Of a stretch of 43,630 nt of DNA, positions 15,637 through 37,483 are shown in pieces (the stretch's first letter is position 1; every line of letters starts with the position of its first letter). The notes under the pieces were generated by a model. That model searched no databases and had not been told where the DNA came from. It saw nothing but the letters and a program-made list of their open reading frames with translations. The position numbers were made by a program, and so were the translations under genes. This stretch comes from Sandaracinaceae bacterium. GTDB taxonomy: Bacteria > Myxococcota_A > Polyangia > Polyangiales > JADJQN01. The stretch is taken from positions 1 through 43,630 of the forward strand of contig CANKOL010000003.1 in assembly GCA_947483975.1 (NCBI GenBank), given 5' to 3'.

Positions 15637-15655
15637 ACCCCGCGTCGCCCCGGCG

Positions 15656-15674
15656 GGCGCTCTCGACGAGCGCC
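15656..15674. terminator. Hairpin between convergent genes (possible terminator)
   Basis: GGCGCTC-TCGAC-GAGCGCC inverted repeat; no clear U-tract. Confidence 0.3.
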
Positions 15675-15697
15675 AGCGCGGAGCCCGATGCAGGGAT

Positions 15698-17776
15698 TTA
15701 CGGGGCGGGGAGGAAGCGCCCGTGGCAGAACGCGCAGGTCTGGGTGACCGTCGCGGGCTGCGTGGCAGCCGCCGCGCGGCGAGACGGCTTGTAGCGATGC
15801 GTGGCGAGGTCGCCCATCCAGTACTGCGTGGGCACAGGGCTGCTGTCGAACAGCCCCGCTTGCGCCGCTCCGCCGAACGCGGTCGGCGGCATATGGCAGG
15901 TCGTGCACACGAGCTCGGCGTCCTCGACCGCGTTGTGCGCAGTCGGGGTCGCCGGCGTCAGCGACACGACGTGCGTGCGAACGGTGCGGAATTCGTCACC
16001 GCCGTGGCAGCCCGTGCAGAGCACGTTCGGCGTGTCCGTCGGCGCGCGCAGGTCATGCGGCACCGTGGGCACACCGTGGACATCGTGGCAGTTGGTGCAC
16101 GCCGTCAGGAGGCGGCCATTGCGCGCCATCGCGCTGCTCGCGTGCATCGGGTACTCGAGCTGCGCGTGCCGCGGGTCGCCCGAGGGATACGTGTCGGAGG
16201 CCGTGAGCATCGGGCTCGTGGTGAAGTCGGCGAGAAGCTCCGCGCGCCGAATACCGGGGCGCGGTCGCTGCCCTGCAGCGTCGAGCGCCGGACCCGCCGC
16301 CGCGCGCGTGTGGCAGGTTCCACAGATGACGTCTTCGCGCTCGGCCGTCAGGAGCTGCGGAGAGATGATGGCGATACCGCGGCCTCGCGCGTCGACGTGG
16401 TTCGAGCCCGGGCCATGACAGCCTTCGCAGCCCACGTTGATGTCTTCCAGGCGGCCGTCGGAGTCGTAGTCGGCTGCGCCGTTGAGCGTCGGCAGAGCCG
16501 AAGCGCGGAAGCCGTTCGTCGAATCCCCCGCAAGCCGGAAGCCCGTGAAGTGGCAGCCCGCACACGCGCGGTCGAAGGATGCCAACGACCCCGGGACGCG
16601 CAGGGCGCCTGCGGTGAAGTCGTACCAGCCGGCCGAGCCGACGTCCGCCCACGGCAAGCCGCGCGTGTCGCTGGCAGTCGCGACTCCGTTGTGCTGGAAC
16701 TGGAACGGCAGCACGTGGTGTTCCATCCCGCCCGGGCGAGCGACCGACACGATGAAGTCCTGGCGGGCGAGCACGCCGCCGTAGGTCAGATCGATCGGGT
16801 ACGTCGCGACGCCAGCGCCTCGGACGTTGCGCAGGGTGACGACATACGCGCCCCGTTCACCGACCGGCACGAGCGCGTTGCGCGAGAGTTCCGCATCGAA
16901 GCTGATCCGCGAAGCGGGTGCCGGCGCGGTCTCCGAGACGCTGCACGGGACCTCGGCGGCGGCGTTGCAGTCGTAGAAGTGGAGGGTGACCCCGGCCTCG
17001 AAACGGGCCAGCGCGGCGTCGAAGTCGGGCCAACGGGAGGTGTCCTCGAGGTAGCCTCGGCGGCCCGGGACGTTGAGCCCCACGAAGTGCGCGGTCCCGA
17101 AGGCGCGGTGCCGACCGTGGCAGTTCGTGCACGCCCCTGAACCGACGTAGGTCGCGTCCGCGCCGGGCGCGGTGCTGACGGTGTAGTCGATGCGCTGCCC
17201 GAGGAGGGACGCCGGCGCCTGCGCGAACCGCGACTGTTCGCCGCCTGGAAGATGGCCCAAGTCCCCCGCAGCGGGCATGACGACCACGAAGACGCTCGCG
17301 TCGGGCAGGGTGACGAAGCGGTAGACACCCTCCTCGTCGATGGTCGCGGAGGCCAGCGTGGCCCCCGCCGCGTCGATGATGTCCTCGAGAGGCTCGTCGT
17401 TCGTCGCAGCAGCCGCCAGCGCGGGCGTGAGCGTTTGGTCGAGCACCGTGGCGCTCAGCGCCGCGACCTCGCTCGCCGGAACCAGCACGACGCGCCCGCC
17501 AGCGAGCACGTCGCCTGCCGTATCGATGACGCGCCCGACGAGGCCCGCAGGCTCCAGCGGGATCGTGCCCGGCGGAAGGCCGCCATCGGGCGGCGGGCCC
17601 AAGTCCGGCGGCCCGGCGTCGGGCGGCGGTGGCCCCTCATCGGGCAGCATCCCGAGATCGGGAGTCTCCCCTGCGGGGCCGGGCTTGCCCTCGGGGCCGA
17701 CCGGCCCTTCGCAGCCGATGAGCGTCATGAGAACAGCGACCGAGAGCACCGTCCATCGCACGCGCGAGTGTTTCAT
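15698..17776 (-). CDS. Octaheme c-type cytochrome lipoprotein with a non-heme N-terminal domain
   Basis: MKHSRVRW...LIGC lipobox; GPVGPEGKPGPAG and DLGP/PPP linker; 8 CxxCH motifs (CTNCH, CAGCH, CEGCH, CGTCH, CTNCH, CTGCH, CTTCH, CAFCH). Confidence 0.88.
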   Translation of the reverse strand: MKHSRVRWTVLSVAVLMTLIGCEGPVGPEGKPGPAGETPDLGMLPDEGPPPPDAGPPDLGPPPDGGLPPGTIPLEPAGLVGRVIDTAGDVLAGGRVVLVPASEVAALSATVLDQTLTPALAAAATNDEPLEDIIDAAGATLASATIDEEGVYRFVTLPDASVFVVVMPAAGDLGHLPGGEQSRFAQAPASLLGQRIDYTVSTAPGADATYVGSGACTNCHGRHRAFGTAHFVGLNVPGRRGYLEDTSRWPDFDAALARFEAGVTLHFYDCNAAAEVPCSVSETAPAPASRISFDAELSRNALVPVGERGAYVVTLRNVRGAGVATYPIDLTYGGVLARQDFIVSVARPGGMEHHVLPFQFQHNGVATASDTRGLPWADVGSAGWYDFTAGALRVPGSLASFDRACAGCHFTGFRLAGDSTNGFRASALPTLNGAADYDSDGRLEDINVGCEGCHGPGSNHVDARGRGIAIISPQLLTAEREDVICGTCHTRAAAGPALDAAGQRPRPGIRRAELLADFTTSPMLTASDTYPSGDPRHAQLEYPMHASSAMARNGRLLTACTNCHDVHGVPTVPHDLRAPTDTPNVLCTGCHGGDEFRTVRTHVVSLTPATPTAHNAVEDAELVCTTCHMPPTAFGGAAQAGLFDSSPVPTQYWMGDLATHRYKPSRRAAAATQPATVTQTCAFCHGRFLPAP

Positions 17777-17848
17777 CAGCAGAGCCCATCTTCCGCCGCG
17801 AGCGCCTGCATACACCACCCTTGCGTTGTCATAAGGCGCTCCTCCGGG

Positions 17849-17863
17849 GCAATTCTGGAACCA
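17849..17863 (-). promoter_or_regulatory. Putative sigma54 (-24/-12) promoter upstream of the octaheme cytochrome
   Basis: Minus strand reads TGGTTCCAGAATTGC: GG-N10-GC with TTGC, in a relatively AT-rich intergenic gap. Confidence 0.4.
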
Positions 17864-17958
17864 CATACACATCCGACATCATGGTGCAAGGCCTTCGGCA
17901 GCGTGCGCGGGTCGATGGGACCGCTCCATGGGCGTCGACTCGGAGCACCCGGACAGTC

Positions 17959-19020
17959 TCAGTTCACGTGACATGCGCGACAGACGCCGTGCCGCAGTGC
18001 GTCGTCCATCGTGAGGCCAGAACCCGGAGGATGCGGGTCGCCCGCCACTCCGCCCACCCGGTGGCACGGCACACACTTCGTCTCCGCGTCCGACTCGTGG
18101 CAGGCGACGCACGAGACCAGATTGCGCCTCGCCTCGCGGGCGTGCCCCATGGGCGAGAGCGGATCGAGCCACCCCACGGGATGAGGACTCTGCGGTCCGA
18201 CGCCGCCGCCGACCCCGCTCGTTTGGTGGCAGCCGTCGCAGAAGGGGGTTCCGTGACAGCGAAGACAGGTGCCGCGCTCGAGATTGACCTCGGTGCCGTG
18301 GCGCGAGAAGAAGTCGCCACGGTGCACGAAGTCCCGGTAGGGCTGGGTAGGATTCAGCACTTCGAGCGGCATCCCCTGCGCGGACAGATGGCAATCCTCG
18401 CAGAACGTCGGGTCGTGGCACTGCGAGCAGAGCGTCTGGTCCGCTGAGGCCGCCGTGCCGTGCCGCCGAAGGAAGCCCGGCCCGTGGTTGAGCACGGTGA
18501 CCTCCTCGATGCGGTAGTCGTGCAGGTCGGTGTGGCACTTCGCGCAGTTCAGCGCGTGCATGGCGTCGTTGTGGCAACTGCCCGTGCACGTAGCCATGCT
18601 CGGCAGGCCGGGCTTGAAGCCGGCGATGCTCTCCGCGTTGGAGCCGTGGCAGCTCACGCAGCGCCCCTTGGTCAGGCTCTCATGCCCGCCATGGTTGAAC
18701 CGCACCGTGTGGTCGCGGGGCTTGTACGGTCCCGCATGGTCGGGGTCCGTGTGGCAGCGCTGGCAGCGGTCGCGGACCGGGTCGTTGTGGCAGCCGCGGC
18801 AGTCGGCTTCTGCGGGTAGGAGCGGCCGTGTCGGCGAGCCGGGATGGGCGGCGGGGCCGCCATCGCTCCGCGCCGTCGCGCCGTGGCAGCGAGGGCAGTT
18901 CATGCCGTTCGCGAGGTGCGGCCCGTGGGAGAAGCGGATCTCGTCGTGCGAGCCGCTACGGCCACCGCATCCGAGGAGAACGGTCAAGAGCACGAGCGGC
19001 AGCAGGCGTAGGCAGGTCAT
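17959..19020 (-). CDS. Heme-dense multiheme cytochrome c lipoprotein (13 predicted hemes)
   Basis: LLGC lipobox; 12 CxxCH plus 1 CxxxCH (CTGSCH) in 353 aa; many spare His residues as distal ligands. Confidence 0.9.
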   Translation of the reverse strand: MTCLRLLPLVLLTVLLGCGGRSGSHDEIRFSHGPHLANGMNCPRCHGATARSDGGPAAHPGSPTRPLLPAEADCRGCHNDPVRDRCQRCHTDPDHAGPYKPRDHTVRFNHGGHESLTKGRCVSCHGSNAESIAGFKPGLPSMATCTGSCHNDAMHALNCAKCHTDLHDYRIEEVTVLNHGPGFLRRHGTAASADQTLCSQCHDPTFCEDCHLSAQGMPLEVLNPTQPYRDFVHRGDFFSRHGTEVNLERGTCLRCHGTPFCDGCHQTSGVGGGVGPQSPHPVGWLDPLSPMGHAREARRNLVSCVACHESDAETKCVPCHRVGGVAGDPHPPGSGLTMDDALRHGVCRACHVN

Positions 19021-20498
19021 TCGGACACCTCCGCCACCCAGCGCGCCCGCAGCATCGCCCGGAGCTCCGACTCGGCGAACGGCGAGGTGCCGAGCGACAG
19101 CGTCGCACCGACGCGGAAGTCCTTGGCGACCTCGAGGTCGCAGCTTCCGCGCCCAATCGCTGAGAGTCGCCCGCCGTCATCATCCGCGGCGAACGCGCCG
19201 TCGAGTGAGACGATCGTACCCCGCCAGACATCGAGCGCTGCACCCGCGGTGAGGACCGTATAGCCGAGTACGCCGTCGTCCCGGCGGCTGGCCTGGACCC
19301 GGAAGGTCGGGCCGTTGTCGGCGCCCGGAGTCAATCGCGCGCTCAGGTCCGCGCGGTACCCGAGCGTCTGGTCACCGGTCGACTGCAGCGTATAGAAGCG
19401 CGCAGCGCCCTCGCCCCGCACAGCCAGTGTGCGGGTCGGCCGCACGGTCACGCCGGCCATCGCCTCGTCGAAAGTGCTGGTCTCGAAGGCGCTCAAGATG
19501 CTCCATGCGGCGATCCATCGAGCGGGCTCGATGTGCAGGTAATTCACGTCGACCTGAAGGTCGTGCGTGATGGAGAGCATCGCGACCGCGCGGGCCTGCA
19601 TGATGCCCGGGTCGAGCGCGTCCACCTTCACGCTCCCCTCGAGCTGAAGGATGCCGGGGTTCCAGCTCGCCGAGAAGTCCACGGTGCGTTTGCCGACGAT
19701 CCCGTGGCCCCAGAGTTCCGCGAAGCTCGCGCCTACCGCGAGCGAACCCGCGTCCTCGTAGCCGACGCGGGCGCCATACGCGACGGTCGAATCCGTGAAG
19801 CTCGGCTGTGGGCCCATCAAGCCGGTGCGAATCGGCGTCACAGGGCGTCCGACGAAGGCCTCGAAGAACAGCCCGAATCCACTGCGCACGCCCGCGCCGA
19901 CGCCGTCGACGTGCAGGCCACCCGGTGGACCATAGCCGAGGAAACGTCGTCCCACCCAGGTAGCGAGGGGCGAGTGGGAGAACTCCACGTAGCCGATCGC
20001 TATGTCGCCTGCGCCGCGGCCGCCGTCGGCGACTTGGATGAGGTCGACGCTGCCCCATCCGGACAGATGCAGCCCGAGCGCGGTCTTCTCGTCGACCGCG
20101 AGCGAGGCGTCCAGAGAGACCCGGTGGTAGAGCGGAAGCGGGTCCACGGACTGCCAGAGCTGCTGCTCGAGTCCGACCGGGTTCGTGGAGGTGTCGAGGC
20201 GGTAGCGCGGCGCCCAGCTGATGATCGTGTCGTGCCGGGTGCGCACGCGCCACTTGCTCGGTGCTCGAGCCGCCGCCTGAACGGCCGCCGCGCGGGCTGC
20301 GGTGGCGCGGGCGTCTCTCTCGGCGTCCGGGTCGGCGCGGCCAGTCGCCGTGCCCGCTCCGGTCGGAGCGGCGTCGGTCGCCGTTGGCGTGGACCCGTCG
20401 TCGACCGCACGGGCCGTCGCATCCTGAGCAGTGGCCGCCGCCGCGTTCGCGGCTAGTAGCATCGACGCCAGGGTGAGCGTGAGCGCGTGCCGCTTCAC
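19017..20498 (-). CDS. Putative outer-membrane beta-barrel (porin of a porin-cytochrome complex)
   Basis: Sec signal (KRHALTLTLASMLLAANAAAA), low-complexity linker, then many amphipathic beta-strand-like segments (YGARVGY, VDFSASW, FRVGATLSLG). Overlaps both flanking cytochrome genes by 4 nt; GTG start at 20498. Confidence 0.72.
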   Translation of the reverse strand: MKRHALTLTLASMLLAANAAAATAQDATARAVDDGSTPTATDAAPTGAGTATGRADPDAERDARATAARAAAVQAAARAPSKWRVRTRHDTIISWAPRYRLDTSTNPVGLEQQLWQSVDPLPLYHRVSLDASLAVDEKTALGLHLSGWGSVDLIQVADGGRGAGDIAIGYVEFSHSPLATWVGRRFLGYGPPGGLHVDGVGAGVRSGFGLFFEAFVGRPVTPIRTGLMGPQPSFTDSTVAYGARVGYEDAGSLAVGASFAELWGHGIVGKRTVDFSASWNPGILQLEGSVKVDALDPGIMQARAVAMLSITHDLQVDVNYLHIEPARWIAAWSILSAFETSTFDEAMAGVTVRPTRTLAVRGEGAARFYTLQSTGDQTLGYRADLSARLTPGADNGPTFRVQASRRDDGVLGYTVLTAGAALDVWRGTIVSLDGAFAADDDGGRLSAIGRGSCDLEVAKDFRVGATLSLGTSPFAESELRAMLRARWVAEVSE

Positions 20499-22069
20499 GG
20501 GGCCGTCCATAGGTTGACGGTGCCATTGATGTGAGCCGCGACGCCCACCGTCGTCAAGCTCGGGCCGGGTCCGACATACCCACCGTGGCAGCTGATCGCG
20601 CTGCAGTTGGTCGCCGTCGTGTGGGGCGGCGGGGGGGGGACCGAGTGGCACGCACCACAGCGTGCGAACGTCCCGCTCGGGTCGCCCCACATCGGCGTCT
20701 GGGCGACGCCGCCGCCGAGCCCGGCTCCGTGGCACGCGACGCCCGCGCAACTACCATCCGGGTTGCGCACGGGGGTCGCGCCGCGCGCGGAGGCAAGGCC
20801 TCCCAGGACGACCTCTGCCTGGGCCCTGGTGCGGCTGGGGTGGGTCATATCCCGCGGCATCGGGGGCATGACGTGACAGTTCGTGCACGCCACCGGCGCC
20901 GACAGGCTCGACCGCACGTGCGACACATGGGAGCCCGTCGAGGGCATCGGGTCCTCACCAGCGCCGTGGCATTCGCCGCAAGGAACACTGCCGTCCGGCA
21001 GCAGGACGCCGTCCCCCACATCGAAGCGACCGTTCATGTGCAGCGGTCCGGGGATGCGGGACATTCCATCGGCCGCCGCCTCGCGGTGACAGGTGTTGCA
21101 GGTGCCCGAGTAGTGGTTCGGGGGCGGGCTCCCGTGGCACGAGCCGCAGGTGAGCACGACGTCGGGCAGCCAGTGAGGTGGGTCCGCCAGCAGCGTTCCG
21201 CCCGCGTCCGGCACCGTGTGGCATTTGCTCGCGGTGCACGTGCCCGCTTCGCCGCCCACTCCCGGCGTGTAGGTGGCGCCTTCGCCCGCCCGGGCCGGGT
21301 CGAGGTGCACGTCGACGGTCCCATTGCCGTGCTCCGACGTTCCGAGCATGGCGACCGTGCGCCGCTCGCCGTGGCAGACCTCGCAGGTGATGCCCGCCGC
21401 GGTGTGCTTCTCGTGCGCGCCCGCCTTGTTCGCCTCATCCGGGTGGACGCAGAGGTCGCGCGGCGGGTAGGCGTGACCGGCCGAGCCGTGGCACGTCGAG
21501 CAGGCGGTGGGGCCGCCTTCTTCGCGATGGCAACTCGTGCAGTCGCTCGCCCCCGGCGCAGAGGGCGCCTCCGGATCGACGGTGCCTGTGGTGCCGCGAT
21601 GACAGCGCGCGCACGCGCCGGTCGCGTCCGGATCGAGCATCTGGCGGAAGCCATCGGCCGCGAGCGCCGTGCCGTGGAAGTCGGGGCTGCGCGGATTCAC
21701 CCAGCCTGGCGGGTGCATCTCGCCGAGCCGGGCCTGGGCACCGGTGGTGACCCACTCCGTGATGAGCGCCTTCTCCTGTGCAGTCAGCAGCGCCGAGTGG
21801 TCGGGGTGGTCGAGCACGGTGAGGATGGGCGCCGTCGTGTCGGCTGGCAGCACTGCCGAAGTGCTCCCCGTCGGGCAGGCGACTGTCGCGAGGTAGCTGT
21901 CAATTCGATAGCCCCCCTCGGCGCGTGCCTCCCCGTGGCAGTCGAGGCACGCGGCCCTGAGCACAGGCTCCACCTCGTCGTACGTCGCGACTGGCGCGGG
22001 GAGGTCCCGCACTGTGCAACCGCCGAGCAGGCCTACGAGAACGAGCGCCGCGACACGAACGCCGCTCAC
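20495..22069 (-). CDS. Multiheme cytochrome c lipoprotein with CxxxxCH/CxxCH repeat domains (13 predicted hemes)
   Basis: GTG start after a GAGGGAG RBS; LLGGC lipobox; 10 CxxCH plus 3 CxxxxCH (CTASKCH, CAGVACH, CSAISCH); H-x-N-G-x-V-D/N motifs typical of Geobacter-type C4xC/C2xCH repeats. Confidence 0.88.
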   Translation of the reverse strand: MSGVRVAALVLVGLLGGCTVRDLPAPVATYDEVEPVLRAACLDCHGEARAEGGYRIDSYLATVACPTGSTSAVLPADTTAPILTVLDHPDHSALLTAQEKALITEWVTTGAQARLGEMHPPGWVNPRSPDFHGTALAADGFRQMLDPDATGACARCHRGTTGTVDPEAPSAPGASDCTSCHREEGGPTACSTCHGSAGHAYPPRDLCVHPDEANKAGAHEKHTAAGITCEVCHGERRTVAMLGTSEHGNGTVDVHLDPARAGEGATYTPGVGGEAGTCTASKCHTVPDAGGTLLADPPHWLPDVVLTCGSCHGSPPPNHYSGTCNTCHREAAADGMSRIPGPLHMNGRFDVGDGVLLPDGSVPCGECHGAGEDPMPSTGSHVSHVRSSLSAPVACTNCHVMPPMPRDMTHPSRTRAQAEVVLGGLASARGATPVRNPDGSCAGVACHGAGLGGGVAQTPMWGDPSGTFARCGACHSVPPPPPHTTATNCSAISCHGGYVGPGPSLTTVGVAAHINGTVNLWTAP

Positions 22070-22368
22070 GCCGCTCCCTCCGCGAATCGCGAGACAGCAC
22101 CGCAGGCGTGAAGCGGTCGCTGCGCGAGGGGATACGCTCCGCGAGTGCGGTCGCGCGTCATGCGGGCTGCGAAGGGTGCTTTCATCGTCGCGGGAACGGG
22201 TCGGGTCGACGAGCCGCACCACCATGGGGTGCCAACTGTGCACCGCGCGGCTGCCCGCAAGGGGGGACCCGAACAATGTGCCGACTTCGTGGCCCGCGAC
22301 TCTCTGGCTGCGTGTTCTTGGCTGCATTTTTTGCGGGCTCATCGTTCGTGCGCGCGCTATCCCCGGTC

Positions 22369-23460: not shown

Positions 23461-23628
23461 ACGCGCGGGTCGGCTGAACCCGCACCGCGTTGTCAGCGTA
23501 CTTCGCGTAGGCCTCGTCGCGGCGTGGGCGAGCCGAGCGGAGCGCTGCGTGGAGTCGCGACCGCGGTCCGTCCGCGCAGGTTCTGCGCGTGCGGTGTGCT
23601 CATGCGCAAGCCGTGCGCGCCCCGCGCG

Positions 23629-23655
23629 GCCGACCCCCTCATCGGTCGGCTTTCT
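23629..23655 (+). terminator. Possible intrinsic terminator downstream of the radical SAM gene
   Basis: GCCGACC-N8-GGTCGGC followed by TTTCT. Confidence 0.35.
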
Positions 23656-23734
23656 CGAACGGGGCGACTCGGCAAATGCTTGAAATGAGAAGGTATTTTC
23701 GCGCGCCCGGGAATGTGCTTTCGTTGTCGCCTCC

Positions 23735-23750
23735 GGGAACAAAACGTGCT
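23735..23750 (+). promoter_or_regulatory. Putative sigma54 promoter of the nuo-kor operon
   Basis: GGGAACAAAACGTGCT: GG-N10-GC spacing (GG 23736-23737, GC 23748-23749) in an AT-richer stretch about 100 nt upstream of nuoA. Confidence 0.35.
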
Positions 23751-23853
23751 AGTTGGCGGGACCTCGAATGACCGCGCGCTCCAAGCTCCTCGACGGCAAC
23801 CCGGTGGTTCCGTCGTGCGTAGCCAGCCGCGTGGCGCAGAGCGGGTGTGCAGG

Positions 23854-24213
23854 ATGAATCAGGGCATCGCGGCGCTCAGCTTCCTCGGCGTCACGTTCGG
23901 GATCGTGATGAGCCTCCTCATCGCCGGGCGCATCCTGCGGGTGCGCGCACGAGTCGAGTCGCCGCTCAAGCATCGCCCCTACGAGTGCGGTGAGGAGCCG
24001 GAGGGCATGGCGTGGATGCAGTTCCACGCGCGCTACTACCTCGTGGCGCTCTTCTTCGTGCTGTTCGACGTGGAGGCAGTCTTCCTGTTTCCGTGGAGCA
24101 CGGTCATCCGCTCGCTCGGCACCTCGACGCTCATCGAGGTCGTCGCCTTCGTGCTGGTGCTCATGATCGGCTGGCTCTACGGGATGCGAAAGGGCGCGCT
24201 GAAGTGGCAATAG
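23854..24213 (+). CDS. nuoA: Complex I-like subunit A
   Basis: [36 protein letters not shown]. Confidence 0.95.
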
Positions 24214-29217: not shown

Positions 29218-31049
29218 GTCTCCCCGTCGGTGCGCTTCCGCTCGAAGCCGCGCCCATTCCGGCGTTCGTCGCGCTCTTCGCTCCCGCCGTCGCTGCGCTC
29301 GTGCTCGCCGCAGCGCCGGCGCTCCGCAGGCGTGGCGCGCCCGCGTCGTGGGTGACGCTCACGGCGTCACTCCTCGCGACGGCCGCGGCGGTCACCCTGC
29401 TCGTCACCCAACTCCGTGAGGGCGGCAGCCATGTTTGGATGGCCTCGTGGCTGCAGATCAACGGCGCCGGCGTCGGCGACTTCGGGGTGCGTCTCGACGG
29501 CGTCTCGGCGACCATGCTGTTGGTCGTCTGCGTGGTCGCGACCTGCGTGCAGGTCTTCTCCCTCGGCTACATGCACGACGAGAAGCCGCCCGCGTTCGGG
29601 CGCTACTTTGCGTATCACGCGCTCTTCCTGTTCAGCATGAACTTGCTCGTGCTCGCTCCGGACTTGCTCCAGCTGTTCGCGGGCTGGGAGCTGGTCGGCG
29701 CGACGAGCTATCTGCTGATCGGCTTCTACTATCAGAAGCCCAGCGCCGGGCAGGCCGCGCTGAAGGCGTTCTGGATCACGAAGCTCGCGGACATGGGCTT
29801 CCTCATGGCGCTGATGGTCCTCTACAAGACGACCGGCACGTTCCGCTGGGACGCCGCCGTGACTGCGGCGACCGCGACGACGGTCAGCGGGCTCCTCTTC
29901 TTCGCCGTCGTCGGAAAGTCCGCGCAGTTCCCGCTCCACATCTGGCTGCCGGACGCGATGGAGGGGCCGACGCCCGTCTCGGCGCTGCTCCATGCCGCGA
30001 CGATGGTGGCGGCGGGCGTGTTCCTCATCGTTCGCGCCAACCCGCTGTTCGCGCACGCCCCCGCGACGCGCGACGTGATGCTGCTGGTGGGCTCCGGGAC
30101 GGCGCTCTTCGCCGCGTGCCTCGCGCTCGTGCAGACCGACATCAAGAAGGTGCTCGCGTACTCGACCTGCTCGCAGCTCGGCTACATGGTCGCGGCGCTC
30201 GGCGCGGGCTCGGTGTTCGGCGGGTTCTTCCACCTCGCGACGCACGCGTTCTTCAAGGCGCTGCTCTTCCTCGCGGCTGGCAGCGTCATCCACGCGGTGC
30301 ACTCGAACGAGCTCGCCGACATGGGCGGCTTGCGCCGACGCATGCCGGTGACCGCGACCACCTTCATCATCGGCGCGATGTCGCTCGCAGGTATCCCTGG
30401 CCTCGCGGGCTTCTTCAGCAAGGACCTGGTGCTCGCATCGGTCGAAGGCCGGTACGGCTGGGTGCCATTCGGCGCGCTGATGGCGACGGCGTTCCTCACC
30501 GCCTTCTACATGGGCCGCGTGGTGTTCCTCGCGTTCTTCGGCGAGGCGCGCGGTCACGCGGGGCATGCGCACGAGTCGGGCGGCTCGCTGCTCGTGCCGC
30601 TGCTCGTGCTCACCGTGCCGTCGGTCGCGCTCGGTTGGGTCGCCGCGCCGCTCGCGCACCTCTCGGGCGCGACCTATGAGCTGCATCTCGTCGGCGTCGT
30701 GCCGATCCTCGCCGCGTCGCTCGGGTTGGGGGGCTTCGCGCTCGCGTGGGTGGTGTACGGCCGCGGGACGCTGGTCGTCAGCGCGCTCGCGCCGCTCGAG
30801 CGCCTCGTCGCGACGCGCGCAGTCAATCGCGTGTACGAGGTCGGCTATCGCCGCGTGCTCCTGGTCGTCGCCGATGTGCTCGGCTGGATCGACCGCTACC
30901 TGATCGATGGGCTCATGAACTTCCTCGGCTGGTCCGCCGTCGCGGGTGGGCGCGCGCTCCGCAGGGTGCAGACCGGCAACGCCCAGGACTACGTCTTCGC
31001 CGTCGTGCTGGGCGCAATCGCCCTGGCGGCTTGGGGGTTGCTACCGTGA
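29214..31049 (+). CDS. nuoL: Complex I-like antiporter subunit L
   Basis: GWELVG, KSAQFPLHIWLPDAMEGPTPVSALLHAATMVAAG, DIKKVLAYSTCSQLG, THAFFKALLFL, C-terminal QTGNAQDY. Confidence 0.96.
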   Translation: MSLPVGALPLEAAPIPAFVALFAPAVAALVLAAAPALRRRGAPASWVTLTASLLATAAAVTLLVTQLREGGSHVWMASWLQINGAGVGDFGVRLDGVSATMLLVVCVVATCVQVFSLGYMHDEKPPAFGRYFAYHALFLFSMNLLVLAPDLLQLFAGWELVGATSYLLIGFYYQKPSAGQAALKAFWITKLADMGFLMALMVLYKTTGTFRWDAAVTAATATTVSGLLFFAVVGKSAQFPLHIWLPDAMEGPTPVSALLHAATMVAAGVFLIVRANPLFAHAPATRDVMLLVGSGTALFAACLALVQTDIKKVLAYSTCSQLGYMVAALGAGSVFGGFFHLATHAFFKALLFLAAGSVIHAVHSNELADMGGLRRRMPVTATTFIIGAMSLAGIPGLAGFFSKDLVLASVEGRYGWVPFGALMATAFLTAFYMGRVVFLAFFGEARGHAGHAHESGGSLLVPLLVLTVPSVALGWVAAPLAHLSGATYELHLVGVVPILAASLGLGGFALAWVVYGRGTLVVSALAPLERLVATRAVNRVYEVGYRRVLLVVADVLGWIDRYLIDGLMNFLGWSAVAGGRALRRVQTGNAQDYVFAVVLGAIALAAWGLLP

Positions 31050-32590
31050 TCGCTGCGCTTCTCCCGGTCATCGTCGCCGCGCCCGCAGTGGCGGCGCTCA
31101 TCCTCCTCGCGATCCCTTCGCGGTATGCGATCGCGACGCGCGTCGTCTCCATGGCGGGCGCGACGGTGTCCTTCGCAGGTTCGGTGCTCGCCGCCGTGCA
31201 TTACGATCGGCACGTGGGCGGGCTGCAGATGCCCTTCGACTTGCCGCTGATCCCCTCGCTCGGAGTCCATCTGAGCCTGGCGATCGATGGCTGGGGTGTC
31301 TCGCTCGTCCTGCTGACCGGCGTGATCATCTTCGCCGCGGTGCTCGCGAGCTTCACCGTTCAGCGTCGCGACAAAGAGTTCTTCATCTACCTGCTGGTCC
31401 TGGTGTCGGGCGTCTTCGGCGTCTTCGTCTGCCAGGATCTGCTGATCTTCTTCTTGTTCTACGAGATCGCCGTTCTGCCGATGTACCTGCTCATCGGCAT
31501 CTGGGGCTCGAGCAACGTCGTCCCGGAGGCGGGGCCTTTCCGCTTCGTGTGGAAGATCTTCGACGTCGGTGGGCGCGAGTACGCCGCGATGAAGCTGACG
31601 GTGATGCTGCTGCTCGGCTCAGCCGCGATCCTCGTCAGCATCTTCGTGCTCTATCAGGGGGCCGGCGCGACGACGTTCAACCTCGGCGTGCTCGGCGCCG
31701 TGCCCTACGCGCGCACGACGCAGATCATCGTCTTCCCGCTGCTGTGGATGGGCTTTGGCTCGCTCGGCGGCGTGTTCCCCTTCCACACTTGGTCGCCCGA
31801 CGGGCACGCCGCTGCGCCGACGGCGGTGTCGATGCTGCACGCCGGCGTGCTGATGAAGCTGGGCGCGTTCGGCGTGATCCGCATCGGCATGATGCTGCTG
31901 CCGGTGGGCGCCGCGTACTGGGCGCCGACCGTCGGCGCGGTCGCGGTCGTCAACATCCTCTACGGCGCGATGTGCGCGATGAGCCAGAAGGACCTCAAGT
32001 ACATCGTCGCGTACTCGTCGGTCAGTCATATGGGCGTCGTCATGCTCGGCGCCGCGACGCTCAACGCGACCGGCTGGAACGGCGCGATCTTCCAGATGTT
32101 CGCGCACGGCGTGATGACGGCGCTCTTGTTCTCGCTCGTCGGGCTCGTCTACGAGCGCGCGCACACCCGCATCATCGCGAAGATGGGCGGCTTCGGCACG
32201 ATCATGCCGGGCGTCGCGACGTTCTTCACGCTCGCGATGCTGTCGTCGCTCGGCCTGCCGGGCACGGCGGGCTTCGCCGCTGAGCTGATGGTCTTCCTCG
32301 GCGCGTGGCACGGCTCGCACGCCTGGTGGACCATCCCCGCGATCCTCGGCGCCTTCGTCACCGCGATCTACGTGCTGCGCGCGAGCCGCGCGATCTTCTG
32401 GGGCCCCGGCCCGAGCGAGCACTTCCACGACCTCTACGATGCGCGCGGCGTCGAGTGGGCCGCGCCCATCGTGTTGGCGGTCGCCATCGTGGTGTTCGGC
32501 GTCTGGCCTAGATTGCTGCTCGATCTGATCGACCCAGCGACCATCGAGTACCTGCGCGACTTCGCGAGCGCGATCGTGAGGCAGCCGTGA
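31046..32590 (+). CDS. nuoM: Complex I-like antiporter subunit M
   Basis: FYEIAVLPMYLLIGIWG, FPFHTWSPDGHAAAPTAVSMLHAGVLMKLG, AYSSVSHMG, SLGLPGTAGF. Confidence 0.96.
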   Translation: MIAALLPVIVAAPAVAALILLAIPSRYAIATRVVSMAGATVSFAGSVLAAVHYDRHVGGLQMPFDLPLIPSLGVHLSLAIDGWGVSLVLLTGVIIFAAVLASFTVQRRDKEFFIYLLVLVSGVFGVFVCQDLLIFFLFYEIAVLPMYLLIGIWGSSNVVPEAGPFRFVWKIFDVGGREYAAMKLTVMLLLGSAAILVSIFVLYQGAGATTFNLGVLGAVPYARTTQIIVFPLLWMGFGSLGGVFPFHTWSPDGHAAAPTAVSMLHAGVLMKLGAFGVIRIGMMLLPVGAAYWAPTVGAVAVVNILYGAMCAMSQKDLKYIVAYSSVSHMGVVMLGAATLNATGWNGAIFQMFAHGVMTALLFSLVGLVYERAHTRIIAKMGGFGTIMPGVATFFTLAMLSSLGLPGTAGFAAELMVFLGAWHGSHAWWTIPAILGAFVTAIYVLRASRAIFWGPGPSEHFHDLYDARGVEWAAPIVLAVAIVVFGVWPRLLLDLIDPATIEYLRDFASAIVRQP

Positions 32591-34143
32591 CCTTCGATAC
32601 GCTGCGTCCTCTGGTGCTTCCGCTCGCCGTCACCGCGGCGGCGCTCGTCGTGCTCCTAGCGGACCTCGCGCTGCCGCCCAACAGCGCGCGGCGCGGCAAG
32701 GTCCTCGGCGGCCTGACCGTGGCGCTCCTCAGCGGCGTGCTCGTCGCCTCGTTCGTCGTCGACACCTCCGGCCTTGCGGCGCACGGCGCCTACGTCGGCA
32801 ACGCGTGGACGACCTTCTTCGCGCGCTTGTTCCTCGTCGCCGGAGCGCTGGGCGTCCTCGGCGCGATGGAACACCTCGAGGCGCACGCGCCTAGACGGCA
32901 GGGCGAGTACTACACGCTGTTGCTCTTCAGCATCGTCGGCATGATGATCGTGCCGGGCGCGCGCGACTTGCTGCTGCTCGTCGTCGCCTTCGAGCTGATG
33001 GGCATCCCGCTCTACATCCTCGCGGCGTACGCGAAGACCGACGCGGCGAAGACGCGCAAGGTGTCCGACCCTGCGCGCGCGTTCGACGCGGCGGAGGCTG
33101 CGAAGGCACCCCACGCGCCCGCGGCAGAGGCCGCGATCAAGCTCTATCTCGTCGGCGCGACCAGCACGGCGATCACGCTGTTCGGTCTGTCGCTCGTCGT
33201 CGGCATGGCTGGGACCACGCGCCTCGCCGGGCTCTTCGGCGCCGAGACGCCCGCGCCGATCACGGTCGTCGGGATGATGCTCGTGCTCGCGGGGCTCTCG
33301 TTCAAGATCGGCGTCGTCCCCTTCCATATGTGGGTCCCCGACACGTACGAGGGCGCGCCGACTCCGTTCGTCGCGTTCCTCTCCGTGGCGCCGAAGGCCG
33401 GCGGCATCGCGGCGCTCGTCGTCGTGTTCCTGCTCGGCACGGGCGGACATCCAGGGCACTGGACGCTCGCCATCGCCGTGCTCGCCGCGGCGTCGATGAC
33501 CATCGGCAACCTGCTCGCGCTGCCGCAGACGGATGTGCGTCGTCTGCTCGGCTTCTCGGGCGTCGCGCAGATGGGCTATGTGCTGCTCGCGATCGCGACC
33601 GGCAACGCAGAGGGGCTGTCGACGGCTGCGTTCTACCTCGCCGCGTACGTCGTCTCGAACATGGGCGCGTTCCTCGTGCTGCACGCGGTCGCGGCGGATG
33701 GCGGCACGCACGACCTCGCGGGGCTCGCGGGGCTCTCGCGGCGCTCGCCGTTCCTCGGGCTCTCGCTGCTGGCGTTCTTGCTCTCGCTCGCCGGCATCCC
33801 GTTCATGATCGGCTTCTGGGCGAAGCTCTTCATCTTCCTCGCGGCCTATCGCGCGGGCCTCGTCGGGCTCGTCGTGCTCGGCTCCGTGCTCGCGGTCGTC
33901 GGCTTGTTCTACTATCTGCAGGTGGCGCGGGCGGCCTACATGGTCGAGCCGACTCAGGCTGCTGCGCCGCGCGTCGGCGGAGCGCTGCGGGCGGCCATCT
34001 TGTTCTGTCTGCTTGCCGCGGCGGGGCTCGGTCTCTGGCCGGCGCCGCTCCACGAGAGCGCCAGCGAAGCAGGCGCCTCACTTTCGAACTCGCTCTCGAC
34101 GGGCACTCCAGCGCCGGTTTCACCAGGAGACGATTCTCAATGA
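32587..34143 (+). CDS. nuoN: Complex I-like antiporter subunit N
   Basis: FELMGIPLY, FKIGVVPFHMWVPDTYEGAPTP, SLAGIP..IGFWAK. Confidence 0.96.
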   Translation: MTFDTLRPLVLPLAVTAAALVVLLADLALPPNSARRGKVLGGLTVALLSGVLVASFVVDTSGLAAHGAYVGNAWTTFFARLFLVAGALGVLGAMEHLEAHAPRRQGEYYTLLLFSIVGMMIVPGARDLLLLVVAFELMGIPLYILAAYAKTDAAKTRKVSDPARAFDAAEAAKAPHAPAAEAAIKLYLVGATSTAITLFGLSLVVGMAGTTRLAGLFGAETPAPITVVGMMLVLAGLSFKIGVVPFHMWVPDTYEGAPTPFVAFLSVAPKAGGIAALVVVFLLGTGGHPGHWTLAIAVLAAASMTIGNLLALPQTDVRRLLGFSGVAQMGYVLLAIATGNAEGLSTAAFYLAAYVVSNMGAFLVLHAVAADGGTHDLAGLAGLSRRSPFLGLSLLAFLLSLAGIPFMIGFWAKLFIFLAAYRAGLVGLVVLGSVLAVVGLFYYLQVARAAYMVEPTQAAAPRVGGALRAAILFCLLAAAGLGLWPAPLHESASEAGASLSNSLSTGTPAPVSPGDDSQ

Positions 34144-35966
34144 GCATTCCTTCGGTCTCAGGCAGCGGTCACTCGAGCGACCTGACCATCGGCATGGCCG
34201 GGTCGGGCGGCGATGGCATCGTCAGCGCGGGTGAGTCCCTCATCGCGGCGGCGGCGAGCCAGGGCTATCACGCGATCATGACCAAGAGCTTCGGCTCTCA
34301 GATCCGCGGCGGCGAGTCCTCCTGTCGCGTGCGCATCGCGGTCGACCGTATCTACAATCCAGGCGGCGTACTCGACGTCGCGGTCGCGCTCAACTGGGAG
34401 GACTTCCTGCGCTTCGGTGCGGAGCTGCCCGTCGGCCCGTCGACCGTGGTGATCTACGAGGAGAAGACCGGCGTTGCGCCGGACAAGCTCCCGATCGTAG
34501 GCGTCGTGCCGACCGACGTCTTCGCGGTGCCGATCGCCGAGCTCGCCCGGAAGGCTGCCGGCACGGACATGGCCAAGAACACCATCGTCCTCGGGCTCCT
34601 CGCGGGCTGGTTCGACATCGCGCCGGAAGGCATCGTGCGGGGCATCCGCAAGCGCTTCGCCAAGAAGAGCGCGGAGCTCGTCGCGGCCAACGAAGAGGCG
34701 TTCCGCGTCGGCACCGAGTACGCGAAGTCGCACCCGCTGCGCGTGCCGCGCGTGCTCAAGCGCCCGCTCGAGAACACCGGCGGCAAGATGCTGCTCGATG
34801 GCAACGATATGTGCGCGGCGGCGGCGATCTTCGCGGGTTGCGAGGCGTTTGGCGGCTATCCGATCACGCCGTCGACCGAGATCATGCAGTTCCTCACGCG
34901 CGAGATCTGGAAGTACGGCGGCACCGTGATGCAGGCCGAGGACGAGATCGCGAGCATCGGTGTCGCGATTGGCTCGTCGTACGCGGGCAAGAAGTCGATG
35001 ACCGCGACCTCCGGGCCCGGCATGGCGCTCAAGACCGAGATGCTCGGCCTCGCGACCATCGCGGAACTCCCGCTGGTGCTCGTCAACGTGCAGCGCGGTG
35101 GCCCCTCGACAGGGCTGCCGACCAAGCCCGAGCAGAGCGACCTCTTTCAGGCGGCCTACTCTGGGCACGGCGATGTGCTTCGGCCGATCCTCGCGCCGAC
35201 GACCGTCGCGGACACCTTCCGGATCACGGTCGAGGCGTTCAACATCGCCGAGGAATACCAGACGCCGGTGATCATCCTGTCGGACCAGGAGATCGGCCAG
35301 CGCAAGGAGACCGCGGACCCGATCGACACCAGCCAGTTCAAGATCATCGACCGGCTGAAGCCGACCGCCGTCGAGCTCGAGAGCTACAACCGCTTCCGCC
35401 TCACGGAGTCGGGCATCAGCCCGATCAGCCACCCCGGCATGGCTGGCGGCAATTACCTCGCCTCCGGCATCGAGCACAACGAGCACGGTGACCCGACGGG
35501 CAGCGGCGCGCTCCACAAGCTCATGAACGAGAAGCGCTTCCGCAAGCTCGACCCGCTCAAGCAGCGGCGCGATCTCTTCGCCGTCGAGGGCGATGTGGAC
35601 GCGGACGTCGCGATGATCGCCTGGGGCTCGGTCGCCGGCGTGTGTCACGAGGCGCTCGCCATCGCGCGCGCCGCGGGTGTGCGGGCCAAGCTGCTCGTGC
35701 CGTATCTGATCTACCCGATCGCCGAGGAGGTCTACGACGACTTCTTCGCGGGTGTGCGCGTGGGGCTCGTCGTCGAGCTCTCGCATCAAGGGCAGCTCTA
35801 TCGGATCCTGCGCAGCTTCGTCGATGTGCCGCGCGGCGTGCGGCAGATGACGCGCAACGGCGCCAACCCGTTCCAGCCTCGTGAGGTGGCGGACGAGCTG
35901 ATGAAGCTCGCGAGCGCTCCGGCCCAAGTTCGCGGTGCAGCAGCCAGCGCAGGAGTGACGCAATGA
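34140..35966 (+). CDS. korA: 2-oxoacid:ferredoxin oxidoreductase alpha subunit (gamma-alpha fusion, KorA type)
   Basis: GSGGDGIVSAG, QIRGGES, GYPITPSTE, QAEDEIAS, TSGPG, VQRGGPSTGLPTK; ATGA overlap with the nuoN stop. Substrate specificity cannot be determined from this. Confidence 0.92.
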   Translation: MSIPSVSGSGHSSDLTIGMAGSGGDGIVSAGESLIAAAASQGYHAIMTKSFGSQIRGGESSCRVRIAVDRIYNPGGVLDVAVALNWEDFLRFGAELPVGPSTVVIYEEKTGVAPDKLPIVGVVPTDVFAVPIAELARKAAGTDMAKNTIVLGLLAGWFDIAPEGIVRGIRKRFAKKSAELVAANEEAFRVGTEYAKSHPLRVPRVLKRPLENTGGKMLLDGNDMCAAAAIFAGCEAFGGYPITPSTEIMQFLTREIWKYGGTVMQAEDEIASIGVAIGSSYAGKKSMTATSGPGMALKTEMLGLATIAELPLVLVNVQRGGPSTGLPTKPEQSDLFQAAYSGHGDVLRPILAPTTVADTFRITVEAFNIAEEYQTPVIILSDQEIGQRKETADPIDTSQFKIIDRLKPTAVELESYNRFRLTESGISPISHPGMAGGNYLASGIEHNEHGDPTGSGALHKLMNEKRFRKLDPLKQRRDLFAVEGDVDADVAMIAWGSVAGVCHEALAIARAAGVRAKLLVPYLIYPIAEEVYDDFFAGVRVGLVVELSHQGQLYRILRSFVDVPRGVRQMTRNGANPFQPREVADELMKLASAPAQVRGAAASAGVTQ

Positions 35967-36835
35967 CCACGAATCCGCTTCTGGTGGCCAAGGATTTCAA
36001 GTCCGACCTCAAGCCCATTTGGTGTCCCGGCTGCGGTGACTTCGGCGTCGTGCAGGCCATCTACCGGGCGCTCGCGGGCGTCGGGCGTCCGCCCCACGAG
36101 ATCGCGTTCGTCTCGGGAATCGGCTGCTCGAGTCGCATCCCCGGATACACGACGGCGTACGGCTTCAACAGCGTGCACGGGCGCTCACTGCCCATCGCGC
36201 AGGGCATCAAGATGGCCAATCCCGACCTGCTCGTGCTCTGCGCGGGCGGCGACGGTGACGGCTTCTCGATCGGCGGAGGGCACGTCGCGCACGCGGTCCG
36301 GCGCAATCCCGACATCACCTACATCGTGATGGACAATCAGATCTACGGGCTCACCAAGGGGCAGCTCTCGCCGACCTCGCCGTGTGGCCTCAAGACCGTG
36401 ACCTCGACGTACGGCAGCTTCGAGCAGCCGGTCAATCCGCTGCTCTATCTGCTCTCGTACGGGGCAGGCTTCGTCGCGCAGGCGACGCCCGCCGACATGG
36501 CGGGGATGGCGTCGGTGATCGAGGAGGCCATTCGTTATCCGGGCTTCTCCTTCGTCAACATTCAGTCGCCGTGCGTCACCTACGGGCAGGAGACGCAGCA
36601 GGTGAAGGCACATCGCTCGCAGATGAAGTCGCTCGCGAGCGTCGGGCACGACCCGGCGAACCGCATGGGCGCGTTCGAGCTCGCGTCGCACTACGGCGAG
36701 GAGCTCTACACGGGCGTGTTCTACCGGAACCCGACGCCGCCCCCGACGTACGACGCGCTGTTCCGCGGGCGTCAGGCGGAGCTGGCGACGAAGGTCCCGC
36801 GCGACCGCATCCTCGACATGTTCGTCCAGCGCTGA
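35963..36835 (+). CDS. korB: 2-oxoacid:ferredoxin oxidoreductase beta subunit (TPP-binding)
   Basis: WCPGCGD, SGIGCSS, HGR, GDGD...N TPP motif, YGLTKGQ.SPT, SPCVT. Confidence 0.93.
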   Translation: MTTNPLLVAKDFKSDLKPIWCPGCGDFGVVQAIYRALAGVGRPPHEIAFVSGIGCSSRIPGYTTAYGFNSVHGRSLPIAQGIKMANPDLLVLCAGGDGDGFSIGGGHVAHAVRRNPDITYIVMDNQIYGLTKGQLSPTSPCGLKTVTSTYGSFEQPVNPLLYLLSYGAGFVAQATPADMAGMASVIEEAIRYPGFSFVNIQSPCVTYGQETQQVKAHRSQMKSLASVGHDPANRMGAFELASHYGEELYTGVFYRNPTPPPTYDALFRGRQAELATKVPRDRILDMFVQR

Positions 36836-36850
36836 GCGAGGAGACACGCC

Positions 36851-37381
36851 ATGACCACCAACGTGCAGGGCATCGACTTCAGCAAGCTCTCGCTGCGTGA
36901 CGCGCTCGACCTCGCCATCCTCGTCGAGGAGGAGGCGAAGGAGCGCTACGAGGAGCTCGCCGAGCAGCTCGAGCAACACCGCACCCCGGAGGCGGCCAAG
37001 TTCTTCCGCTTCATGGTCGAGAACGAGGCGAAGCACCGGGCGGACCTCGCCGAGCGTCGCCGCGTGCTCTACGGGCGCGAGCCTTCGACCGTCACGCGCG
37101 ACATGATCTTCGACATCGAGGCGCCCGAGTACGACGAGGCGCGCGCGTTCATGTCGCTGCGGCAGGCGCTCGAGGTCGCGCTGCGCGCCGAGCAGAAGGC
37201 GCACGCGTTCTTCGTCGGGGCGATGCCGAGCGCGACGGACCCCGCGGTTCGCGCGCTCTTCGACTCCCTGCGCCTCGACGAGATCGAGCACCAGAATCTC
37301 GTGCAAGCCCAGCTCGACAAGCTGCCGCCGGACCCCGTGGCGAAGCCCGAGGACTACGGCGACGAGCCTGTCAGTCAGTAG
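36851..37381 (+). CDS. Ferritin-like/rubrerythrin-family diiron protein (no rubredoxin domain)
   Basis: Duplicated E...ExxH helices: LAILVEEEA...ENEAKH and ALRAEQKA...DEIEH; GAGGAG RBS; no CxxC pairs. Confidence 0.88.
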   Translation: MTTNVQGIDFSKLSLRDALDLAILVEEEAKERYEELAEQLEQHRTPEAAKFFRFMVENEAKHRADLAERRRVLYGREPSTVTRDMIFDIEAPEYDEARAFMSLRQALEVALRAEQKAHAFFVGAMPSATDPAVRALFDSLRLDEIEHQNLVQAQLDKLPPDPVAKPEDYGDEPVSQ

Positions 37382-37483
37382 GCGGCGGGGACGACGCAGC
37401 GGCTCCTGAGGGGGCGTGGGGCGAGGTGACTCCCGAAAGGCCGTGCGGAAGCGCGCGGCCTCGGCGTGTTACCGTCGCTGCCC

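Follow-up and report, generated by a model that had tools for sequence, protein, structure and literature searches.

The window analysed here is a stretch of 43,630 nucleotides, the whole of contig C3 (CANKOL010000003.1) in a fragmented metagenome-assembled genome (MAG) of a Sandaracinaceae bacterium (GCA_947483975.1; 5.29 Mb, 524 contigs, 81% complete). Its central block, positions 15698 to 37381, carries two divergent sets of redox genes: a minus-strand cluster of three multihaem cytochromes (cyt8, cyt12 and cyt10) and an outer-membrane beta-barrel, and a plus-strand operon for a headless complex I (without NuoEFG), a 2-oxoacid:ferredoxin oxidoreductase (OFOR; KorAB) and a ferritin-like diiron protein, with a radical S-adenosylmethionine (SAM) gene in between. 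A preliminary description had read these genes as one module of about 22 kb that would wire 2-oxoacid metabolism in the cytoplasm to the cell exterior. The gene content and coordinates that it gave, including the 34 haems and the divergent halves, were borne out and its interpretation is partly supported, but the unifying claim is not. Judged against related genomes, the block probably comprises three independent units, the cytochrome conduit (unit A), the radical SAM gene (unit B) and the nuo-kor operon (unit C), of which the two large ones are separate modules of already known kinds, all of them neighbours in this lineage only.

Three samples were compared: 40 relatives, 400 genomes of the same order, and 80 KorA loci of named genomes with at most 10 kb on each side. 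KorA orthologues were called at E ≤ 1e-120; the barrel count in the 400 genomes comes from a stricter first look and is a floor. Of the 40 relatives, 6 had the barrel, and all three same-family genomes (90-94% complete) were without a match to it. KorA orthologues (66-71% identical) were present in three relatives, and the remaining matches, at 30-36%, were of a paralogue type of which this genome has its own copy on contig C67. Across the order, 25 genomes had the barrel and 31 a KorA orthologue, with both in 11, the barrel only in 14, KorA only in 20 and neither in 355. Barrel and KorA shared a contig in none of the 11 genomes having both. This result is firm for long contigs: in G128 the barrel lies 335 kb into a contig of 712 kb and korA 136 kb into another of 182 kb. 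In G164, G148 and G094 the flank exceeds 50 kb to one side or to both. Around KorA, no match to cyt8, cyt12, the barrel, cyt10 or the radical SAM gene was found within 10 kb in any of the 80 loci; nor was there a nuo, kor or rbr (diiron gene) match at 12 cytochrome-cluster loci from 12 genomes (two of them shorter than 5 kb), or a cytochrome match at six nuo-kor loci of order genomes. The units occur independently of one another, which is the outcome that the preliminary description had named as speaking against its single module. We rejected a co-inherited 22-kb redox island, since the halves are unlinked in related genomes. The idea of one fixed route from 2-oxoacids to the cell exterior does not hold against the relatives, and the block is therefore not reportable as a new system.

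Several observations weigh against this reading. About half of the 11 genomes having both parts are on short contigs, which makes the same-contig test weak and leaves adjacency possible there. Co-occurrence itself is in excess, with 11 genomes observed against 1.9 expected (naive Fisher p = 2e-7); these genomes fall in 3 genera and thus represent three or four independent events, and the excess may be explained by common ancestry or a common habitat. The three same-family genomes lack both modules, and this lineage may therefore have gained or retained the two jointly. As for the assignment to known kinds, the window's operon holds no ferredoxin gene, a sequence relation between MtrB and the barrel is undetectable, and lipoboxes stand on all three cytochromes, whereas MtrA and OmaB are soluble periplasmic proteins.

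The product of the radical SAM gene, a protein of radical SAM and SPASM architecture, matched TIGR04053 with 423.7 bits (cut-off 395) and reached 313 bits against the AhbD haem b synthase model (TIGR04545; cut-off 500). AhbD and NirJ are its best characterised relatives and share this architecture; it differs from them in scoring under their cut-offs, in belonging to a family (TIGR04053) without an assigned function, and in its variable genomic context. Orthologues (E ≤ 1e-90) were found in 125 of the 400 order genomes, mostly without barrel or KorA (a tally that includes G122, flagged as unpublished); among them are 43 of the 55 genomes of the small-genome genus g11, for which no barrel or KorA match is listed. 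Genus g27 (G027 and G094) is the only one in which the gene adjoins the cytochrome cluster. The nearest orthologue of the window's gene (80%, G128) sits on a third contig without cytochromes, and the neighbours vary among genomes. Membership of the cytochrome cluster was rejected on the g27-only adjacency and the separate contig in G128. By its distribution, the gene is best taken as an independent third unit, part of neither half. The earlier view of a heme-pathway-like radical SAM gene followed by the operon holds as to the gene and its AhbD/NirJ-like relatives; the AhbD cut-off is not reached, some 390 bp separate the gene from nuoA, and it is counted apart from the operon.

That gap before nuoA contains one weak terminator-like site (23701-23718) and probably holds the nuo-kor operon's own promoter. 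A regulator motif shared by both halves was sought with sigma-70, palindrome and repeat scans and none was found: the scan for sigma-70-like sites, which included 22070-22347, returned none, and the repeats were short and unconvincing. The FNR/CRP-like palindrome TTGAT-N4-ATCAA, with at most two mismatches, had 9 matches in the window against 2.3 expected, and none of 100 shuffles reached 9; none of the 9 lies in 22070-22347, 23461-23853 or the other intergenic regions of the block. At least 7 of these 9 palindromes are inside coding open reading frames (ORFs).

Table 1. Features of the block and its flanks, in window coordinates, and ferredoxin genes in the modules of relatives, in locus coordinates.
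Feature	Position	Strand	Evidence or remark
SgmX-like TPR gene, left flank	12610-15636		
cyt8	15698-17776 (alternative start 17872)	-	lipoprotein octahaem cytochrome c; 8 CXXCH, lipobox LIGC
cyt12	17959-19020	-	compact 353-aa lipoprotein cytochrome; 12 CXXCH + 1 CX3CH, lipobox LLGC
haem-free outer-membrane beta-barrel ('porin')	19017-20510	-	signal peptide; AlphaFold2 model
cyt10	20495-22069	-	lipoprotein cytochrome, first gene of cluster; 10 CXXCH + 3 CX4CH, lipobox LGGC
divergent intergenic region, cyt10/radical SAM	22070-22347		206 bp if radical SAM starts at 22276
radical SAM/SPASM gene, TIGR04053 (AhbD/NirJ-like)	22348 (or 22276)-23460	+	TIGR04053 match
gap before nuoA	23461-23853		393 bp, AT-richer stretch
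nuoA, nuoBC (fused), nuoD, H, I, J, K, L, M, N	23854-34143	+	complex I without NuoEFG
gene starts, nuoA to nuoI	nuoA 23854, nuoBC 24204, nuoD 25442, nuoH 26641, nuoI 27618	+	ORFs
gene starts, nuoJ to nuoN	nuoJ 28349, nuoK 28918, nuoL 29214, nuoM 31046, nuoN 32587	+	ORFs
korA + korB, two-subunit 2-oxoacid:acceptor (ferredoxin) oxidoreductase	34140-36835 (korA 34140, korB 35963)	+	NCBIfam
ferritin-like diiron 'erythrin'	36851-37381	+	PF02915
GH63-like glycosidase gene, right flank	37466-40180		
module ferredoxin genes of relatives	L012:8729-9043, L033:9913-10362, L036:8265-8777, L105:5702-6121, L098:13201-13566, L109:1178-1486		

Unit C encodes an 11-subunit (headless) complex I, as seen from Pfam and NCBIfam matches for its nuo subunits; nuoK (28918-29217) was recognized from where it lies and from tblastn matches (60-74%) to the operons of relatives, not by the profile scan. 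No NuoE, F or G domain (Complex1_51K or related) was found among the block's ORFs, and nuoD ends at 26644, past the start of nuoH. The thirteen genes from nuoA to the diiron gene are joined by overlaps of 1 to 10 nt or a 15-nt gap, with 4 nt shared by nuoN and korA. The description of the operon as headless complex I, OFOR and diiron protein was right as to content, except that nuoB and nuoC are one ORF and not two: they are fused (24204-25445) through a Pro/Ala/Ser/Thr-rich linker, and the fusion was matched end to end in G013, G158, G253 and G128 and as two pieces in G027. Ligand motifs for the iron-sulfur (FeS) clusters are intact in NuoB (CC..C..CP) and NuoI (CxxCxxCxxxCP, twice). Aligned to Thermus thermophilus Nqo4 (2fug_4), NuoD keeps His38 and Tyr87 (in PSTHGV and DY), which are the quinone ligands of Nqo4 (PMC4758237). 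After its ferredoxin fold, NuoI continues into a low-complexity C-terminal tail of about 85 aa rich in Ala, Pro and Lys (28100-28349); similar tails occur in two relatives (L033 and L105) and are absent from the rest.

KorA scored 562 bits against TIGR03710 (cut-off 482.75) and KorB 267.7 bits against TIGR02177 (cut-off 261.9), which identifies an alpha subunit with gamma and alpha domains and a thiamine pyrophosphate-binding beta subunit, both above curated cut-offs; all substrate-specific equivalog models stayed under theirs. The diiron protein matched PF02915 with 55.5 bits (cut-off 22.8), and its match to MbfA is limited to the N-terminal erythrin part. At 176 aa it has no cysteine and hence no rubredoxin-like Cys4 domain, so that the erythrin domain described before stands and the protein is erythrin-only, not a full rubrerythrin.

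The proposal that nuo, korAB and the diiron gene form a functional unit gained support from relatives, where this block is conserved in three gene orders. The order nuo, kor, rbr is that of this window, G013, G158 and G253; kor, rbr, nuo is found in G027 and in ten named loci labelled Myxococcaceae, Archangiaceae, Polyangiales or delta proteobacterium; and G128 and L109 have rbr, korB and korA divergent from nuoA. At least five nuo subunits lie near KorA in 23 of the 80 named loci (15 with rbr, 8 without), with neighbouring orthologues 60-77% identical, and rbr follows korB in 37 of the 80. The other 57 KorA-orthologue loci have none or fewer than five nuo matches within 10 kb (23 loci are shorter than 15 kb). 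All eight rbr-less nuo-kor loci are labelled Opitutaceae, Opitutales or Verrucomicrobia; going by these labels, the gene link between KorAB and complex I extends outside Myxococcota. Loci so labelled (L039, L041, L043, L044, L045, L074, L097 and L101) have korAB with nuo genes on at least one side and no erythrin; in most of these loci the order is nuoK/L/M/N-like genes, then korAB, then a nuoA/B/D-like set.

A gene for a 2[4Fe-4S] ferredoxin of about 100 aa lies in the modules of six relatives, directly before nuoA or after rbr (Table 1). The orthologue in this genome, 63-73% identical, is on contig C284 (L119:4389-4700) beside a MiaB-like gene, and no ferredoxin-gene remnant was found below E = 0.05 in three intergenic regions of the block; the gene is also absent in the ten kor, rbr, nuo loci. 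With korAB in the operon and the ferredoxin gene in six relatives' modules, the donor to this 11-subunit enzyme (Nuo11) would be reduced ferredoxin or flavodoxin. The placement of korAB beside headless complex I in three orders, often with a ferredoxin gene, offers independent genomic support for the old proposal that 2-oxoacid oxidoreductases supply such enzymes with electrons by way of ferredoxin, and Myxococcota genomes in few contigs (such as G354, G374 and G129), possibly of cultured strains, could serve to test it.

Elsewhere in this genome, NuoF genes are present on C21 and C66, a second nuo set is on C266 and C21, and there are genes for 2-oxoglutarate dehydrogenase E1 and three COX1 (haem-copper oxidase) genes, which fits the earlier remark that myxobacteria of this group are mostly aerobes. 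Given these NuoF-bearing nuo genes, 2-oxoglutarate dehydrogenase E1 and three haem-copper oxidases, the nuo-kor operon is accessory and supplies the quinone pool in parallel. Contig C13 carries NuoB-, NuoD- and NuoL/M-like genes at about 18458-25427 (28-38% identity), which suggests that the genome has a third cluster akin to complex I, either Mrp/Mbh-like or of the group 4 hydrogenase type.

Known ferredoxin- or flavodoxin-fed enzymes share much with unit C. The Nuo of Campylobacter and Helicobacter (OOR/POR-flavodoxin), Nuo11 of Desulfitobacterium hafniense, cyanobacterial NDH-1 and NUO11 of Chlorobium (PMC4758237) likewise have nuoABCDHIJKLMN without EFG, and these Nuo11 enzymes resemble it in an intact quinone site and FeS ligands and in having a 2-oxoacid oxidoreductase as the proposed electron source. 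For the 11-subunit Nuo of Desulfitobacterium, one study proposes a chain from pyruvate:ferredoxin oxidoreductase (PFOR) through ferredoxin to Nuo and reports that PFOR, ferredoxins and a rubrerythrin track Nuo in proteomes (PMC11238625); the rubrerythrin among the Nuo-co-expressed proteins of D. hafniense parallels the diiron gene here. Two further papers infer this scheme for other headless clusters (PMC9386147, PMC4453560). Unit C differs from the known Nuo11 enzymes in having the OFOR in the operon, a fused NuoBC and a cysteine-free erythrin after korB, and in its host, which has aerobic respiration genes and NuoF-bearing nuo on other contigs; its operon has no NdhS/V/O-type or NuoX/Y-type extra subunits.

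Unit A has the gene make-up of a porin-cytochrome complex: 34 haem motifs (30 CXXCH and 4 CX3-4CH) in three neighbouring lipoproteins together with a predicted barrel. From cyt10 to cyt8 its genes are spaced by a 16-nt overlap, a 4-nt overlap (that of cyt12 with the barrel gene) and a 179-nt gap. The cyt10 gene starts with GTG at 22069, preceded by GGAGGGAG, and its product scored 71.7 bits against TIGR01904 (CxxxxCH/CxxCH domain; cut-off 27). The cyt8 protein has a haem-free N-terminal region of about 230 aa and Pfam matches to Paired_CXXCH_1 and Cytochrome_C7, with weak, sub-cut-off matches to the GSU2203 and DmsE decahaem families; orthologues of 43-58% identity occur near the cluster in 9 loci of relatives. 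The barrel gene is followed by cyt12 in all 12 relatives' loci and the order cyt10-barrel-cyt12 is constant; cyt12 is a candidate for the haem wire in or below the barrel. No close solved structure was found for the cluster's cytochromes. Lipoprotein signal sequences are present on all three, even on the compact cyt12, which would be expected to be the soluble wire of the barrel.

The barrel ORF had no match in Pfam or NCBIfam. Its AlphaFold2 model, built on an alignment of 12 orthologues, has about 22 long strands (mean predicted local distance difference test score, pLDDT, 76), and among the Foldseek matches listed all were outer-membrane barrels (ushers, Occ and general porins) with TM scores of 0.3-0.4. 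The family comprises 448 cluster representatives at E ≤ 1e-3, 280 at 1e-10 and 25 at 1e-30. None of 12 distant members scanned had a Pfam match, and neither they nor the barrel matched the MtrB/PioB family (PF11854). Named members are solely hypothetical proteins from MAGs labelled Sandaracinaceae, Polyangiales or Deltaproteobacteria. As a lead only, a language-model look-up pointed to similarly sized, unnamed clusters from Acidobacteriota and Gemmatimonadota.

Gene families joined to the cluster in relatives point to its partner at the inner membrane. Directly upstream of cyt10, an FeS-gene family was present in 7 of 10 compared loci and an NrfD-gene family in 6 of 10, with a small multihaem cytochrome gene alongside them in 3 of 10; Pfam assigned family representatives to Fer4_11 (FeS), PF03916 (NrfD) and the cytochrome c7 type (small cytochrome). 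Two sampled relatives (L029 and L030) add MtrC/MtrF-domain cytochromes, which together with further cytochromes are lacking from the smaller cluster here. In three loci cyt12 is followed by a further common gene, of which the one scanned representative (L035) is a cytochrome b. The G027 cluster contains, downstream of cyt12, a stop-to-stop frame of about 805 aa with 32 CXXCH (L019:13248-15662) that overlaps the preceding cytochrome ORF.

The preliminary description had placed the link from quinol to the periplasm outside the window and had suggested searching the rest of the genome for it and for cytochrome c maturation genes. Both turned up: maturation genes are present, and contig C6 (L117:6593-15888) holds an NrfCD-type module in which a small multihaem cytochrome gene is joined by those for an NrfC-like FeS protein, two large multihaem cytochromes and two NrfD proteins, the second NrfD gene being convergent. 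Its genes are 39-63% identical to those upstream of cyt10 in relatives, and one of the large cytochromes has a weak MtrC/MtrF-domain match. A gene of the NapC/NirT family was not found in this genome, which is 81% complete. The C6 module resembles NrfCD- or complex iron-sulfur molybdoenzyme (CISM)-type quinol:cytochrome c modules, of which the Geobacter Cbc complexes, Desulfovibrio Qrc and alternative complex III are examples, in that an NrfD membrane subunit is accompanied by a four-cluster-type FeS protein (Fer4_11) and a small multihaem cytochrome, as it also is upstream of cyt10 in relatives. It differs from them in that no molybdopterin-like subunit was seen on C6, in its two convergent NrfD genes and in the two large multihaem cytochromes between the FeS and NrfD genes. 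Upstream of the module, C6 encodes a hybrid of PAS histidine kinase and response regulator as well as a protein with many Dictyostelium-type repeats.

The suggested likeness to a porin-cytochrome conduit was upheld by the roughly 22-strand model, by the outer-membrane barrels among the listed Foldseek matches and by the MtrC/MtrF-like cytochromes in relatives' clusters. As in Shewanella MtrCAB and the Geobacter Pcc (OmaB/OmbB/OmcB) and Ext systems, the barrel gene is flanked by multihaem cytochrome genes, at least one for a lipoprotein; cyt12 is compact, haem-dense and of MtrA size (353 aa, 12-13 haems); and relatives' clusters add MtrC/MtrF-domain cytochromes. MtrB has 26 strands, compared with about 22 in the model here. 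The differences are a barrel without an MtrB_PioB or other Pfam match, cytochromes without a solved relative, a lipobox on all three cytochromes and, in relatives' clusters, a fused NrfCD-type quinol module instead of CymA, ImcH or CbcL. As to possible ties with the Geobacter Pcc/Ext families, the profile scans gave the TIGR01904 match of cyt10 and the sub-cut-off GSU2203 match of cyt8. As an unannotated family that is fused to an NrfCD quinol module in Polyangiales-type genomes, these barrels may represent a class of extracellular electron conduits of freshwater bacteria. A preprint on boreal lakes names Myxococcota as the group with the greatest wealth of novel cytochrome clusters putatively serving extracellular electron transfer (10.1101/2022.03.26.485925).

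From these comparisons we infer how the units could work. In unit A, a haem wire, probably formed by cyt12, would cross the outer membrane in the barrel of about 22 strands and lead to the lipoprotein cytochromes, with electrons drawn from quinol by the small cytochrome, NrfC-like FeS protein, multihaem cytochromes and NrfD encoded on C6. In unit C, KorAB would oxidize a 2-oxoacid and reduce the 2[4Fe-4S] ferredoxin encoded on C284; electrons would pass to NuoI, then to cluster N2 of NuoB and to quinone at NuoD, while NuoH and NuoJ to NuoN pump protons. The diiron protein probably shields the oxygen-sensitive KorAB. Units A and C would share solely the quinone pool.

Were the halves nonetheless joined in this lake lineage and co-regulated from the regions between cyt10, the radical SAM gene and nuoA, electrons could at low oxygen run from a 2-oxoacid through KorAB, Nuo11, quinone, the C6 NrfCD module and the conduit to humics or Fe(III), or in reverse; an aerobe-type myxobacterium would then respire an extracellular acceptor and conserve energy at a KorAB-fed headless complex I. 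The clusters are indeed adjacent and divergent with junctions confirmed in other samples, both halves are absent from G001 to G003 and co-occur in 3 other genera, the quinol link exists on C6, and the stretch is found in lake-water or freshwater metagenome runs. We nevertheless regard this as unlikely: the adjacency is seen in 1 of 12 genomes having both, the radical SAM gene and the 393-bp gap lie between the divergent region and nuoA with no shared motif found, and any quinone reductase and any quinol oxidase would be 'wired' in the same trivial sense. That the adjacency is a mis-assembly or binning chimera is extremely improbable. The MAG is fragmented (524 contigs, 81% complete) and G+C is lower in the block (0.67-0.70) than in the left flank (about 0.72-0.74), but contigs from four other lake-water/freshwater runs cover all 30 bins and every bin of 15000-34999, and bridge both the cyt10/radical SAM junction (X10, 21578-22393; X8, 21578-22273) and the radical SAM/nuoA junction (X7, 23232-24783; X8, 22985-24321), and both flanks have same-genus orthologues.

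Even with units A and C taken as separate, each could work otherwise than outlined above. In place of export, the cytochrome cluster could bring in electrons by oxidizing Fe(II) or humics, or could take part in redox reactions of the periplasm or the cell surface: the sequence gives no direction, three COX1 genes equip the genome for aerobic respiration, and the cluster is reduced relative to L029 and L030. This has some claim to be considered but is doubtful, as the NrfCD module, barrel, lipoprotein cytochromes and relatives' MtrC/MtrF-like domains match outward conduits, if by resemblance only. For unit C, complex I-type enzymes and 2-oxoacid:ferredoxin oxidoreductases are reversible, so quinol and proton-motive force could reduce ferredoxin via Nuo11, for KorAB to carboxylate acyl-CoA or for other low-potential uses, the more so as 2-oxoglutarate dehydrogenase and NuoF-bearing nuo already cover the oxidative direction. 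Such reversal seems quite improbable given that the window has no carbon-fixation context (reductive tricarboxylic acid cycle genes were not searched genome-wide) and that the same module occurs in many MAGs of large-genome Myxococcota, Acidobacteriota and Verrucomicrobiota, which are taken as heterotrophs. We give very little credence to KorAB docking on NuoI in place of NuoEFG, which would make an OFOR-headed complex I, a 2-oxoacid:quinone oxidoreductase with no soluble ferredoxin. NuoI is a domain of the ferredoxin-like delta kind, which is missing from two-subunit OFORs, korA overlaps nuoN by 4 nt, and neither this operon nor the ten kor, rbr, nuo loci contain a ferredoxin gene; against docking stand the ferredoxin gene within the module of six relatives and the 57 of 80 KorA loci with none or fewer than five nuo matches in 10 kb (23 loci below 15 kb).

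The flanks named in the preliminary description, an sgmX-like gene and a glycosidase, were both found. On the left, genes for a Mur-ligase-like protein, accD, PHO4, aroQ, accB, accC and sgmX are collinear with the same-genus genome G001 (62-92% identity); on the right, the GH63 protein is 79% identical to its G001 copy, which sits on another contig. Synteny with G001 stops exactly after the sgmX-like gene (window 15636-15698; G001:C2 after 617575), and the next 22 kb in G001 hold no match to the right part of the window and nothing of the block. Because G001 synteny ends at sgmX and GH63 is elsewhere, the block lies at a rearrangement point. A single insertion between conserved flanks is not demonstrable, with GH63 on another G001 contig, and no block part or C6 cytochrome was found in G001 to G003. 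Horizontal transfer is unsupported, and vertical descent with loss would fit equally well: AccC (72%, against 66% in f11 and f16), KorA (77%, against 70-72%) and the barrel (65%, against 36-42%) all have their nearest relatives in the same family, f22.

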